Below, in pieces: positions 18,929-24,460 of a stretch of 64,000 bases of DNA. The position numbers and the translations under genes were made by a program. Under the pieces are notes generated by a model. It saw only the letters and a list, made by a program, of their open reading frames with translations, was not told where the DNA came from and searched no databases. Position 1 is the stretch's first letter, and every line of letters starts with the position of its first letter. Origin of the DNA: Candidatus Enterousia sp. (GTDB lineage Bacteria > Pseudomonadota > Alphaproteobacteria > Rs-D84); assembly GCA_045648885.1 (NCBI GenBank), contig JAZROV010000003.1, forward strand, positions 3,179 to 67,178. Reading direction: 5' to 3'.

Positions 18929-19003
18929 GGTCCCATCGTCTAGCGGTCAGGACATCAGATTCTCATTCTGACGACATGGGTTCGATTCCCATTGGGACTG
19001 CCA
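18929..19003 (+). tRNA. tRNA-Glu (anticodon CUC), CCA encoded
   Basis: Hand-folded. Acceptor GGTCCCA/TGGGACT (G1-U72 wobble), anticodon stem TCAGA/TCTGA with loop TTCTCAT, T-arm ATGGG-TTCGATT-CCCAT, discriminator G then CCA. Confidence 0.9.
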
Positions 19004-19013
19004 TAAAAATTAA

Positions 19014-19040
19014 ATCCGATTTTATCGGGTTTTATTTTTA
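19014..19040 (+). terminator. Intrinsic terminator after tRNA-Glu
   Basis: ATCCGAT-TTT-ATCGGGT followed by TTTATTTTT. Confidence 0.6.
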
Positions 19041-19162
19041 TCTGGTGTTCTTGGGGATCGAACCCATGGGTTCGTGTACGAAGTTATTAAAAACAAGCGA
19101 TATATCGCGCAGTTTTTGATTTACGAGTCGAAAGGGGCCCATCACGGCGCATTTATGCGCCG

Positions 19163-19193
19163 GATGGGAATTACATTCCCATTGGGACTGCCA
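19163..19193 (+). repeat. Degenerate second copy of the tRNA-Glu 3-prime end (T-arm plus acceptor plus CCA)
   Basis: 19175..19193 (ATTCCCATTGGGACTGCCA) is identical to tRNA positions 18985..19003. ATGGG precedes it in both copies, but here the T-loop reads AATTACATT instead of TTCGATT. Confidence 0.85.
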
Positions 19194-19195
19194 CA

Positions 19196-19295
19196 ATGAG
19201 TAGCAGAGCGATTTTATCGCGATGCGTTACGAATGTCGCGCAGGCACAAAGTGCCGAGCGAAATGTTTCAAACGCCACGAAAGTGGCCTTTTTTG
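19196..19295 (+). ncRNA. Candidate structured RNA (three GC-rich hairpins, the last an intrinsic terminator)
   Basis: Hairpins GCGAT-TTT-ATCGC, GGCAC-AAA-GTGCC and GCCAC-GAAA-GTGGC followed by CTTTTTT. GC-rich in an AT-rich background. No family recognised. Confidence 0.3.
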
Positions 19296-19446
19296 TTAGA
19301 ATTTCAATAGTCATGCGATTTCGAAAATATGGTATTGAAAACCGATCCCTTTTCGCCAAATTTCGAACTTTTCTGCAGATAATGACAATTTTCTGTAGAC
19401 ATTGATGATTTTGTTGATACAATCAGCGCGACACAAAGGATAAAAA

Positions 19447-19890
19447 ATGGCAGAAAATTATGATACTTTAAAAGAAAATAACTTGCGTCAAATGGTCGTA
19501 GAATATGAAAACGAAAGACAAATAGTGTCTGATACTTGTGCAAAATATAAACAATATTGTCATAACTTGATACAGGAAACGGCATTGCAAGAATTAGAAG
19601 ACATCCGTGAAAAAGAAATTGACTTGTCGGAAGACCCGTTTTTGCGCGAGGGCGCATACGACCCCCGTAGTTTTCTTTGGCTCTATAGAAGCCATTTTTA
19701 CGATAATGCGGAGGCAAACCTGGTCAGAAAATACGCCATGATATATGATGCAAAAAATATTGATAAGTATCCGGCACCAACACCATTACCACGAATGGAA
19801 GATTTATTAGACCCATACATGCCGTCTTCTTTTACTTATGAAACATTGAAGAGACTTGCGGCACATTGTTCAAAATGGCGTCAAAAATAA
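19447..19890 (+). CDS. Hypothetical protein (147 aa)
   Basis: RBS AAAGGA before the ATG; intact ORF; followed by the + strand terminator at 19997..20027. Confidence 0.6.
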   Translation: MAENYDTLKENNLRQMVVEYENERQIVSDTCAKYKQYCHNLIQETALQELEDIREKEIDLSEDPFLREGAYDPRSFLWLYRSHFYDNAEANLVRKYAMIYDAKNIDKYPAPTPLPRMEDLLDPYMPSSFTYETLKRLAAHCSKWRQK

Positions 19891-19996
19891 ATGTTTATGT
19901 TTGAATCTGTAAGAAAGTTTTAATTTCTTTCCCGAACTGCAATAAATCTTTGGTTTCATCGATTCATGAATTGCACAGATGGCCCTGCCACAATTC

Positions 19997-20027
19997 AAAC
20001 CGACCTTGTGGGTCGGTTTTTTCTTTG
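19997..20027 (+). terminator. Intrinsic terminator inside boundary module a
   Basis: AAACCGACC-TTGTG-GGTCGGTTT followed by TTTCTTTGTTTT. Confidence 0.75.
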
Positions 20028-20100
20028 TTTTCCAATACTTTCACGAGTTCGAAAGTTGGGTGGTAAAATAGATATCATTTTGCAAATTTACGAACTTTTA

Positions 20101-20130
20101 AAAAGAAAAGGTTAGAAATCTAACCTTTTT
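20101..20130 (-). terminator. Intrinsic terminator (minus strand) after the GNAT gene, inside boundary module a
   Basis: AAAAGGTTAG-ATTT-CTAACCTTTT followed by CTTTTT on the minus strand. Confidence 0.7.
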
Positions 20131-20160
20131 CATAGTTCGTATTCATTGTGGGTGTTTTTA

Positions 20161-22052: not shown

Positions 22053-22083
22053 TTTGATTTCTGTTATTATATGATTTAAAATA

Positions 22084-22425
22084 ATGCGTATGAAAAAAAT
22101 TATTGCGTTTTTTGCGTTCTTGATTGGCTGTAGTTCTGCTAACAGCCAGTCATGTGATTTATGTGGTAACTGGTCTTTTGATAAATTTGAATATGTCGGG
22201 CATATAACCACAGATTGTGAAAGTACTGCTCAGCATTTTTATGCAAACACTTATATTAAAATAGATGTTCGCAATTTTACTGTTGGCGAATATGATTTGG
22301 ATGAGAAAGCTCAAGAACTTTTTGTAAAAACTGAAGACAATTTAACAGAAAAGTTTTACGTATCAAGTAAAGATTCTATTTATATTTTTTTAGACGGATG
22401 TCGTTTTTATTTTAAACGCGAATAA
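22084..22425 (+). CDS. Small lipoprotein (113 aa), candidate immunity partner of the muramidase
   Basis: Lipobox MRMKKIIAFFAFLIGCSS. Lies 31 nt downstream of the lysozyme gene, on the same strand and in the same cassette. Confidence 0.6.
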   Translation: MRMKKIIAFFAFLIGCSSANSQSCDLCGNWSFDKFEYVGHITTDCESTAQHFYANTYIKIDVRNFTVGEYDLDEKAQELFVKTEDNLTEKFYVSSKDSIYIFLDGCRFYFKRE

Positions 22426-22545
22426 TTCTGTTTGTGTTTTATATAATTATAAAGTTTCCAAAAACACTTTAACATCTTTCCCGAACTGCAACAATTCTTT
22501 GATTTTATCAGTTCGTGAATTGCACAGATGGCCCTGCCAAAGTTC

Positions 22546-22580
22546 AAACCGACCTTTTGGGTCGGTTTTTTCTTTGTTTT
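22546..22580 (+). terminator. Intrinsic terminator inside boundary module c
   Basis: AAACCGACC-TTTT-GGGTCGGTTT followed by a T-run. Confidence 0.75.
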
Positions 22581-22650
22581 CCAATACTTTCACGAGTTCG
22601 AAAGTTAGGCACTAAAAACAGACACCATTTTACCGATTTACGAACTATTA

Positions 22651-22680
22651 AAAAGAAAAGGTTAGAAATCTAACCTTTTT
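22651..22680 (-). terminator. Intrinsic terminator (minus strand) after the transglutaminase-like gene
   Basis: Same AAAAGGTTAG/CTAACCTTTT hairpin as in module a. Confidence 0.7.
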
Positions 22681-22730
22681 CATAGTTCGTATTTATTGTG
22701 GGTATTATCATAACATATTTGTGCTATCAA

Positions 22731-23504
22731 TTAACTTCTTGATAAATCTTTTACAGGAACATGTGGTATTGACTGTTCTTTCTCAAATACCATATCTTCC
22801 AAAACATTAGCGCCATCACCGTAACCATAAAAATATTTACGATTTGTTATAATATCCCGAGTCTCAAAGAATGCCACTTTTCTTTTATTTGTTAAAAGAC
22901 GCGCTTGTAATTTTACTTTTTGTTCGGGACTTAATTCAATAACAGAAATATTCGGTTTGGCACCAGCATTATTGTTCGCTGGGTCAAAAACATAATCAAT
23001 ATCATTTTCATGAATGATAACAAACGAATGCTGTTTGCCGAATTCCCAATTTTTATTACCAATGTATTCACCACCAACATATTCGGAAGCAACACCGACA
23101 CTTTGTAAATACAGTTGTGCAATAGTTGCATATTCTGCACATTGGAATAAATGCTTATCAAACAATTCAGACAGTTTGGCAGTTGGATTCTTAGCGTAAA
23201 AAGATTGGCGTTTATTATCTTTGCAACCTAAATCAGGAAACGTTTCAGCAATAACCCTAGCAAATACAAATAAATGTGTAAACAAAAGCTGTGACATTGT
23301 GATATTTTGTTGTTTCAACAACTTTGCATTATCCGGATTATTAGCCTGCCGATTCACAATTTCACGCATATTTTCAAATGCCTTTTGTAATTTTTCTGGA
23401 ATTTTATCAATTATCAAATTGGCTGTTGAACCAACTTTAATAATGTCACCAATATTGATATCTGTTGCTGTTAAAGACACTTCGTTTATTTTTCTAAGTT
23501 TCAC
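22731..23504 (-). CDS. Transglutaminase-like / papain-fold cysteine enzyme (257 aa)
   Basis: Cys-His-Asp pattern at the expected spacing: FQCAEYATIAQLYLQSVGVASEYVGG ... QHSFVIIHENDIDYVFDPAN. GTG start with RBS AAGGAAAA. Confidence 0.55.
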   Translation of the reverse strand: MKLRKINEVSLTATDINIGDIIKVGSTANLIIDKIPEKLQKAFENMREIVNRQANNPDNAKLLKQQNITMSQLLFTHLFVFARVIAETFPDLGCKDNKRQSFYAKNPTAKLSELFDKHLFQCAEYATIAQLYLQSVGVASEYVGGEYIGNKNWEFGKQHSFVIIHENDIDYVFDPANNNAGAKPNISVIELSPEQKVKLQARLLTNKRKVAFFETRDIITNRKYFYGYGDGANVLEDMVFEKEQSIPHVPVKDLSRS

Positions 23505-23532
23505 AGTTTTTCCTTTTTTATCGTTCAGAAAT

Positions 23533-23632
23533 CATTATATCACAAATTTTGCAAAAAAGTTTTAATTTCTTTCCCAAACTTCAACAAATCACGCATCTCA
23601 TTAGCTCGTAAATTGCACAGATGGCCCTGCCA
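23533..23632 (+). repeat. Cassette-boundary module M1, copy d (includes the minus-strand promoter arm)
   Basis: ATTATATCACAAATTTTGCAAAAAAGTTTTAATTTCTTTCCCAAAC...CATTAGCTCGTAAATTGCACAGATGGCCCTGCCA, followed at 23633..23695 by a fragment of the GC-rich repeat family. Confidence 0.85.
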
Positions 23633-23737
23633 TCCGCTTTCGCTTACGCTACAGCGAGATTTGAGTATCGTGCCGTAGCCAGCTCGTTTTTCAAACAAAT
23701 TTTTTATCTGGGTTCTTATAATCTGGATACACATGCT

Positions 23738-24373
23738 TTAACGGCAACCAACAATCCAATCCATATAAGGTCTGATATCAAAGTGCTGAACATCGGGTAT
23801 TCCGACACAACCCTTATACGGTAACATACAAAACACTTCCCCTTTTGGGTTTGTTCTTATACCTGAAATACATGTTAAATCTGCGTCACTTAAATCAACA
23901 TAATCTACATTACTAAAATCAAGATACCCATGCAGTCCCACAGAACTTGCTAAATTAATCAATTTAGCATCAGGATTCCACTTTATATTTGCATCATAAG
24001 AATCTTTGCACCCATAGCGAAAAACGGCATCCATGAACCAGACGTTTTCCACAGTTTGCAAATTCCATGTTCCGCGGATAACAGTTCCTGCGATAACTTG
24101 TCGTACATTTACAAAATTTATATTTCTAAATTTTGTTCCCCCCATACAACTATCAATACTTACACTATCGATATTTTTAAATTCTAAATCGATTCCTTTT
24201 TTTGCGTTTAAATTTTTGTTTACAATAAGGTATTCCAGGTCTGTAATATGAATTTCCATACCTTTAATGAAACGCGGCGCATCACTTTTGATGTTTTTTG
24301 GTGTAACTATGTACGGATTTGCCTCTTTACCAACAACAGTTATCTTTACAGTCGGCACTAAGTTGACTTTCAT
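23738..24373 (-). CDS. Hypothetical protein (about 211 aa)
   Basis: Preferred start is ATG 24373 (MKVNLVP...) with RBS AAAAGG. The tracked ORF extends to 24457. Confidence 0.55.
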   Translation of the reverse strand: MKVNLVPTVKITVVGKEANPYIVTPKNIKSDAPRFIKGMEIHITDLEYLIVNKNLNAKKGIDLEFKNIDSVSIDSCMGGTKFRNINFVNVRQVIAGTVIRGTWNLQTVENVWFMDAVFRYGCKDSYDANIKWNPDAKLINLASSVGLHGYLDFSNVDYVDLSDADLTCISGIRTNPKGEVFCMLPYKGCVGIPDVQHFDIRPYMDWIVGCR

Positions 24374-24460
24374 ATTTTTACCTTTTATATCTTGCTTCAA
24401 GATACAAAATATTTTCAATTTGTCAAATTTTTGATTATATTTGTGCCAGAAAAGCAAATG

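Follow-up and report, generated by a model that had tools for sequence, protein, structure and literature searches.

Downstream of the tRNA-Glu(CTC) gene of a Candidatus (Ca.) Enterousia-like gut alphaproteobacterium of the order Rs-D84 lies a row of small gene units that runs up to merR and gyrA and is punctuated by four copies of a conserved repeat, here called M1. The DNA analysed, referred to as the window, comprises 64,000 nucleotides of contig JAZROV010000003.1 and represents bacterial chromosome rather than phage. Little is known of how the reduced genomes of Rs-D84 (~0.75-1 Mb, also given as ~0.8-1 Mb) gain flexible genes, and the literature searched describes neither mobile elements nor cassette arrays for this lineage. 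Beside each of the two tRNA-Glu genes in over 100 species living in the guts of animals and humans, M1 arrays, whose precisely bounded units may have accumulated by serial site-specific capture, appear to be the main hotspot of flexible genes.

A profile derived from 135 copies detects M1 four times in the window, always in the same orientation (E-values from 6e-19 to 2e-23) and nowhere else in the 64 kb; repeat finding, alignment and BLAST also confirm these copies. The first-pass annotation, made from the letters of the window, had marked the same four direct copies and described a module of 75-95 bp. The conserved repeat itself stands, but the part common to all copies is a ~65-nt core extending from TCTTTCCC to CTGCCA (TCTTTCCCRAAC...GTTCGTGAA...CTGCCA), and the 25-30 nt 5′ of it, a minus-strand TGATATAAT box among them, are part of the individual cassette. 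The shared promoter formerly ascribed to copies b and d is likewise a property of individual cassettes, and M1b is not shortened but has a diverged 3′ end. Discrete variants of the M1 3′ end exist (CACAGATGGCCCTGCCA versus CGCGAGTTGCCCTGCCA). Unlike sites conserved in structure, M1 is conserved in sequence: RNAalifold found no consensus fold on either strand of 144 distinct copies, and in an Rfam scan of positions 18500-25000 the tRNA alone passed the threshold, on which grounds a structured RNA or an attC-like hairpin was rejected.

A 23-nt degenerate pattern of the M1 core, searched in one-genome-per-species collections, matched 113 stretches. Four of these were chance matches in other phyla, and nearly all came from Ca. 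Enterousia or its uncultured relatives among the gut Alphaproteobacteria. The profile recovered 237 copies in 109 species-level loci plus the window, 160 of them ending sharply at ...CTGCCA, and an independent metagenome scan added a further 160 copies in 89 loci (individual loci are cited below by L numbers). For 62 of the 109 loci, the 8 kb of sequence retrieved included a tRNA-Glu gene with a TTC or CTC anticodon. Of the pairs of M1 and tRNA-Glu, 69 of 70 from genome loci and 47 of 47 from the metagenome (116 of 117 in total) had M1 on the downstream side of the tRNA and in the same orientation. Up to seven copies occur per 8 kb, and feature maps of the loci reveal arrays with tRNA-Glu first and each block of cargo followed by an M1. 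The comparative data thus bear out the proposal that the array is anchored at tRNA-Glu. They also dispose of two simpler origins that had been named as its possible undoing: M1 is no generic genome-wide promoter or untranslated region, as its only four copies in the window all lie in the array and elsewhere it is tied to tRNA-Glu, nor is it a local segmental duplication, since over 100 species have it and their cargo differs.

It is the cargo that varies. Families of cargo genes recur at differing array positions and with differing neighbours, their boundaries falling exactly at M1, and in loci syntenic to the window (tRNA-Glu-CTC ... merR-gyrA) both cargo and M1 number differ in eight of eight species, which is the variation at M1 boundaries that the first-pass annotation had suggested looking for. 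Among 460 pairs of M1 copies with one cassette in common, none also had the adjacent cassette in common. A typical unit of ~0.5-2.5 kb, a uniformly small size, opens with a terminator hairpin, often continues with a ~165-nt module called ext, holds one or two cargo genes in either orientation, provided with an extended -10 promoter and terminators of their own, and has M1 last. Among the cargo are GH108 and phage-type muramidases, MuF-like fragments, MafB19-type deaminases, GNATs and nucleotidyltransferases as well as META lipoproteins, a PNP/UDP phosphorylase, hydrolases and radical-SAM proteins. Hydrolases of the cell wall, deaminases resembling toxins, MuF fragments and small modifying enzymes make up most of it, a composition that hints at a stock of accessory genes and genes for interbacterial antagonism. 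Known phage-defence genes were considered and rejected, since PADLOC models gave zero matches to ten cargo proteins.

In the window, four cassettes and a distal segment follow the tRNA (Table 1), whose 3′ end would serve as the anchor of the array, comparable to attB or attI. Between tRNA-Glu and the first cassette, a minus-strand fragment at approximately 19043-19075 resembles a tRNA 3′ end (TGGTGTTCTTGGGGATCGAACCC), and a pseudo-tRNA without D-arm occupies 19140-19193; the last part of the latter (19175-19193) is an exact 19-nt copy of the tRNA-Glu(CTC) 3′ end and gives a second ...CTGCCA junction in the window. The same flank (19004-19193) follows tRNA-Glu(CTC) in three other species (L088, L067 and L092; flank cluster 6), the leader of cassette 1 (flank cluster 1) is found after M1 in 14 copies from other species, and the flank of the distal segment is common to five other M1 copies (flank cluster 4). 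Of the cargo, the GNAT cluster is found in 14 loci at varying array positions, the muramidase cluster in 27 and the lipoprotein cluster in eight; Pfam lends no support to the transglutaminase-like label once given to the 257-aa open reading frame (ORF). Terminator-like hairpins are enriched in the locus (15 observed against 3.7 expected in a terminator scan), and 8 of the 14 AGTTCG boxes of the window are concentrated in the array.

Table 1. Features of the M1 array and its borders in the window
Feature	Position	Strand	Details
tRNA-Glu(CTC)	18929-19003	+	ARAGORN; Rfam tRNA 63.7 bits; 3′ end ...GGGACTGCCA
tRNA-proximal remnant	19004-19193	+	terminator 19012-19032; minus-strand tRNA fragment; pseudo-tRNA
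Cassette 1	19194-19990	+	75-nt leader, terminator, ext-like module, 147-aa ORF, M1a
Conserved leader, cassette 1	19194-19270		
Terminator, cassette 1	19274-19287		
Degenerate ext-like module, cassette 1	19289-19372		
147-aa ORF	19447-19890	+	function unassigned; cluster c133, also in L077 and L088
M1a	19902-19990	+	core 19926-19990; profile E = 6e-19
Cassette 2	19991-20837	+	extA, GNAT, TGATATAAT box, M1b
extA	19991-20154		+ terminator 19997-20019; AGTTCG boxes 20046, 20090, 20134; bidirectional hairpin 20106-20129
GNAT acetyltransferase	20161-20709 (20733 if first ATG)	-	Pfam GNAT families; cluster c9
TGATATAAT box, cassette 2	20739-20747	-	
M1b	20744-20837	+	profile E = 5e-22; 3′ end diverged (GGATGTTTAGGCA)
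Cassette 3	20838-22539	+	leader, muramidase, lipoprotein, M1c
TGATATAAT box, cassette 3 leader	20858-20866	+	
Terminators, cassette 3 leader	20881-20899, 20915-20931		
363-aa muramidase	20961-22052	+	MuF-type motif (PPFHPNCQCS) and Phage_lysozyme domain, Pfam E = 6e-29
113-aa lipoprotein	22084-22425	+	3′ of muramidase gene
M1c	22448-22539	+	core 22475-22539; profile E = 2e-23
Cassette 4	22540-23632	+	extC, 257-aa ORF, TGATATAAT box, M1d
extC	22540-22704		91% identity to extA
257-aa ORF	22731-23504	-	function unassigned; cluster c135, also in L093 and L113
TGATATAAT box, cassette 4	23534-23542	-	
M1d	23539-23632	+	core 23568-23632
Distal segment	23633-24457	-	after last ...CTGCCA; without terminal M1
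211-aa ORF	23738-24373	-	function unassigned
merR	24461-24826		Pfam MerR_1; conserved distal border of array in eight syntenic loci
gyrA	24848-27631		conserved distal border of array in eight syntenic loci

Three details of these cassettes may be added. The GNAT gene probably starts at its second ATG (20709, preceded by AAAGGAAAT), giving a protein of 182 aa, the length of its homologues; a start at the first ATG (20733), only a few nucleotides from the -10 box, is improbable. The region upstream of the muramidase gene, with its TGATATAAT promoter-like box and two tandem terminators, looks leader- or attenuator-like, and muramidase and lipoprotein together resemble an effector/immunity-like gene pair.

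Every unit starts at the base after ...CTGCCA, a junction termed J. When the 160 nt downstream of each ...CTGCCA, be it of tRNA-Glu or of M1, were clustered into flank families, the largest family united 57 genuine tRNA-Glu genes with 92 M1 copies, its homology beginning at +1, and two more families also combined tRNA-Glu and M1. Because the same families follow both from +1 onwards, the 3′ ends of M1 and of tRNA-Glu can be regarded as interchangeable left partners of the same right-hand sequences. A resemblance of the M1 3′ end to the degenerate tRNA-Glu copy had been noticed before, and the last ~12 nt of M1 indeed imitate the tRNA-Glu 3′ end, M1 ending in ATGGCCCTGCCA and the tRNA genes in TTGGGGCTGCCA or TTGGGACTGCCA.

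The ~165-bp extension behind M1a and M1c has to be seen in the same light. Its two copies are near-identical (91%), as described earlier, but it is not an appendage of M1. In other species it stands directly behind genuine tRNA-Glu genes, and since tRNA-Glu-ext and M1-ext joins are found together in a single locus, ext is best read as the conserved start of the next cassette rather than as native flank. The join of M1, core and ext measures ~250 bp, shows AGTTCG-type boxes in each of the arms beside the core and resembles an attP site of the lambda type; by the same analogy, the tRNA-Glu-ext join would be attL-like and the join of the last M1 to chromosomal DNA attR-like.

How exactly units come and go is illustrated by five independent indels found among near-identical genomes, three of which comprise precisely one unit at the CTGCCAA core. 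In the first (L207 empty, L072 filled), 1,018 bp sit exactly at the CCA end of tRNA-Glu (empty site ...GGGGCTGCCAAAATAATAAAATCACC, left junction ...GGGGCTGCCAAAATAAACAAATCGGG, right junction ...GGCCCTGCCAAAAAAACAAAATCACC). The second (L078 empty, L201 filled) involves 1,590 bp at a pseudo-tRNA (...TGGGCTGCCAAAAATTAAAAATACCC, left ...TGGGCTGCCAAAAATTCAAACCACCC, right ...GTCCCTGCCAAAAATTAAAAATACCC), with a core of 12 nt common to both junctions, and the third (L112 empty, L013 filled) ~800 bp with a common core of 7 nt (...GAGACTGCCAAGAATC, left ...GAGACTGCCAAAAATC, right ...GGCCCTGCCAAGAATC). Comparison of different arrays points to the same position: where M1 copies have the right cassette in common (~95-100% identity), identity is 0.93 from +1, starting at (CT)GCCA, and M1 to the left of J drops to the family background.

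From these comparisons, we give slightly better than even credence to serial site-specific capture of cassettes at tRNA-Glu or at an existing M1 by a recombinase acting in trans. Small circular cassettes lacking an integrase would insert at the CTGCCAA core by site-specific recombination, which we infer to be enzymatic, and their target would be tRNA-Glu or any M1 already present. The recombinase would be encoded elsewhere in the genome or delivered by a transient element, and repeated insertion and excision would build and reshuffle the array. A second exchange at a point X, located after TCTTTCCC, or else gene conversion of M1, would uncouple the stretch between X and J from the cassette. 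Serial site-specific capture was also what the first-pass annotation had proposed; the precise one-unit indels at CTGCCAA support it, but the catalysis stays conjectural, and a second exchange site and one indel off the core have been added to the picture. More tentatively, M1 arrays might constitute a second, integron-independent platform, with tRNA-Glu as the primary capture site and cassettes swapped at J (CTGCCAA) and X (TCTTTCCC) between persistent linkers of ~57 nt, served by a housekeeping enzyme (e.g. Xer) or by an enzyme of a type that tyrosine and serine probes do not detect.

A number of observations weigh against capture by such an enzyme, beginning with the exchange points. Where left cargo is in common, the first part of M1 is often fully identical, and identity ends directly after TCTTTCCC; this break at X was seen in 12 of 27 left-shared cassette groups, the rest breaking after other conserved blocks. 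The X-to-J stretch (~57 nt) assorts independently of both neighbouring cassettes, M1 identity being 0.82 where 5′ cargo identity is 0.95, and this independence is not predicted by a single crossover at J or by simple attC-like capture. Exchange within or beyond the conserved 3′ block was counted in ~4 of 29 left-shared but in 6 of 8 right-shared groups, unequal distributions that run contrary to a single reciprocal crossover, which predicts equal ones. Cassettes would seem to act as J-to-X units swapped between linkers, unless M1 copies convert frequently. Homogenisation inside arrays is weak, and a genome-specific, homogenised M1 was rejected on the finding that similarity within arrays barely exceeds that between arrays. 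Two of the indels also depart from the expected pattern, the fourth (L179 and L152 versus L127) lying at an unrelated 10-nt repeat, TTTTTTGCAT, and the fifth (L010 versus L029) beginning at J and ending inside ext, and the 7-12-nt cores could also serve microhomology-mediated deletion. In addition, all comparative sequences are metagenome-assembled genomes, the genes bordering the arrays are housekeeping genes (GAPDH, Lgt, ABC or MFS transporters), and M1 is absent among the 2.9 million viral contigs of IMG/VR; this last result, together with an 8-kb query that had zero matches among 50,697 phage records, also led to the rejection of a phage origin of the locus.

To these must be added the outcome of the recombinase search, which covered the window and the array loci rather than whole genomes and employed E. 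coli XerD and gamma-delta resolvase as probes in phmmer with Pfam confirmation. No tyrosine or serine recombinase was found among all stop-to-stop ORFs of at least 60 aa in the 64-kb window, and in 109 genome and 93 metagenome loci the hits were limited to Hin-like invertases and one XerD-like gene (L084), DDE and HUH enzymes not having been probed in either set. Neither an integrase nor a fragment of one was present in ~200 arrays with ~400 M1 copies, which extends to all of these the absence first remarked upon for the window.

Two enzymes of the clade were examined as candidates. The Hin-like gene, a small serine recombinase (Resolvase and HTH_7 domains, 196-200 aa, 77-100% identical across the clade) near some array ends, is always divergent to a gene for a YadA-anchor adhesin and accompanied by hix-like AAACCAAGGTTT inverted repeats, which looks like a phase-variable promoter switch of the adhesin. 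With this context and with only one M1 in ten 20-kb surroundings of the gene, it was rejected as the cassette recombinase; its occasional nearness to arrays reflects the synteny of GAPDH, tRNA-Asp and tRNA-Glu. In L114-L123 (e.g. L114:8118-10591), inverted AAACCAAGGTTT and AAACCTTGGTTT flank the ~150-170 bp between the invertase and adhesin genes. The other candidate, a 588-aa tyrosine integrase (Phage_integrase), is encoded by a 5.2-kb element (L122:2495-7758) at the 3′ end of tRNA-Leu(TAA) with a 16-nt direct repeat of the tRNA end, CCCACTATCCCCACCA, on either side, the site being empty in L121 and L123. Site-specific integration targeted to tRNA therefore operates in this lineage, but a homologue of this integrase is absent from every M1 locus, which excluded it as the array enzyme.

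Should there be no dedicated recombinase at all, M1, ext and the tRNA would be portable stretches of homology at which cassettes are exchanged between strains by homologous or microhomology-mediated recombination after DNA uptake, the blocks perhaps being kept for a regulatory or insulating role and the tRNA-like junction being the relic of an old event. We regard this explanation, the main rival of site-specific capture, as possible but doubtful. It would accommodate ~200 arrays without a linked recombinase and the indel at TTTTTTGCAT, and it accords with exchange points just after conserved M1 blocks (columns 20-22, 39-44, 54-60 and 80-95), with M1 copies that are mosaics unlinked to either neighbour and with a ComEC-type Competence domain among the locus proteins, of which 231 representatives were scanned. 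However, the stretches of identity at the favoured exchange points span no more than 7-12 nt, below the usual requirement of RecA, and with left-shared cargo exchange seldom falls in the longest identical block (25 nt, GTGAATTGCACAG...CTGCCA), in the proportions given above. The J core was used by three of the five indels; tRNA-Glu, where one of these three lies, has only ~9 nt in common with M1. Homology alone also leaves the strict polarity and the restriction to tRNA-Glu unexplained.

Alternatively, ordinary larger islands that carried an integrase (tycheposon or CIME type) might have piled up serially at tRNA-Glu and decayed to one or two genes plus an attR end. The attL-, attP- and attR-like junctions are what tandem accretion would produce, tRNA fragments adjoin tRNA-Glu in the window, the element at tRNA-Leu(TAA) is a canonical integrase element of the same clade, and tandem integrations with partial tRNAs have been described for Prochlorococcus islands. 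We nevertheless consider such an origin unlikely: besides the missing integrase genes and fragments, the units are uniformly ~0.5-2.5 kb in size and each have their own promoter and terminators, the same small units occur intact in different species and positions, and the precise indels are whole small units.

M1 also bears a weak coding-like signature on its minus strand. Of the six frames, the one that reads WQGHLCNSRxDFIxDLLxFGKEIKxFLQIL followed by a stop (e.g. 23632-23540) shows the lowest pN/pS (0.50-0.56), and it is stop-free in 124 of 128 distinct copies. An origin of M1 as the recopied 3′ end of a minus-strand protein gene, comparable to loci at which an element integrating into the 3′ end of a gene brings a replacement for that end, to which this frame and the coincidence of degenerate core positions with third codon positions would lend some colour, is nonetheless highly improbable, as M1 never lies within a long ORF and has no conserved start codon, the apparent stop is the TG/TA of the extended -10 box TGATATAAT, the 3′ block lacks three-base periodicity, and among 5.8 billion proteins just nine ORFs of 45-75 aa contain the peptide and zero full-length proteins end with it. 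In deaminase cassettes (L179:6430-7087; flank cluster 3), a minus-strand ORF runs through J into the upstream M1, which supplies the last ~20 codons of this cargo in a frame other than the WQGHLC frame.

Integrons are among the known systems closest to M1 arrays. In both, one-gene cassettes stand in tandem and close with a repeated recombination element 60-140 bp long, a fixed primary site lies at one end, order and content vary between genomes, and boundaries are precise, with insertions of single cassettes. In contrast to integrons, M1 arrays have no intI or other recombinase next to them, a tRNA 3′ end serves as their primary site, their cassettes come in both orientations with their own promoters and terminators, and M1 is conserved in sequence without a fold and without RYYYAAC/GTTRRRY cores, whereas attC is conserved in structure. 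The M1 array is hence integron-like in operation, yet it is not an integron.

Serial site-specific integration at specific tRNA 3′ ends is known from the tycheposon-built tRNA islands of Prochlorococcus, with tandem integrations and partial tRNAs. Tycheposon and CIME islands share with M1 arrays the direct repetition of att cores at a tRNA 3′ end, the inward displacement of older elements, the presence of partial tRNAs and the role of a flexible-gene source in small genomes otherwise without mobile elements. They differ in that tycheposons carry an integrase, often also replication modules, and measure several kb to more than 10 kb, while M1 units of 0.5-2.5 kb were without mobility genes in ~200 arrays; at least some array members would be expected to carry an integrase, and none turned up in the array loci searched. 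Moreover, M1 is no plain partial tRNA but a conserved arm of ~65-95 nt with only ~12 nt of imperfect tRNA-like sequence.

The rAID-1 arrays of gut Bacteroidales, in which a conserved XerD-family recombinase at the 5′ end is followed by co-directional low-GC genes, are likewise long arrays of small antagonism-related genes in gut bacteria, with repetitive intergenic sequences reminiscent of integrons. M1 arrays depart from them in lacking a 5′ recombinase, in their tRNA-Glu anchor, in having genes in both orientations and in a cargo of putative toxins and enzymes besides possible immunity lipoproteins. Lambda-type attP/attB integration, finally, is matched by the ~250-bp arrangement with AGTTCG boxes on both arms, by a short core common with the tRNA 3′ end and by all three junction types, the L122 element being its canonical example in the clade; unlike this system, M1 arrays have no identified integrase, their core matches the tRNA over no more than 7-12 nt, and M1 has a second preferred exchange point ~57 nt away. 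Literature searches found no earlier description of the M1 array system.

If capture is site-specific, M1 arrays would represent a new compact cassette system with a sequence-defined attachment element (~65-95 nt) and a universal tRNA as target, and the recombinase, once identified, would provide both a new tool and a new branch in the biology of integrons and integrative elements. If the arrays are recombinase-free, short conserved linkers alone would be able to sustain an integron-like gene market. Under either reading, M1 offers a simple sequence handle with which to mine cassette cargo from gut metagenomes.

Two other regions of the window deserve mention. Just upstream of tRNA-Glu, two large minus-strand genes (14740-18920) encode proteins of 1033 aa and 366 aa, neither with a significant Pfam match, the former cysteine-rich and apparently secreted or membrane-bound. 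Two window proteins were looked up as exact protein records, and neither is on record. At 5770-5940, ~200 nt downstream of tRNA-Gln (5536-5609), the other tRNA of the window, there is an ext-like module (AGTTCGAAAGTTTGG ... TTCGAACT) that contains three AGTTCGA boxes and is not accompanied by M1.

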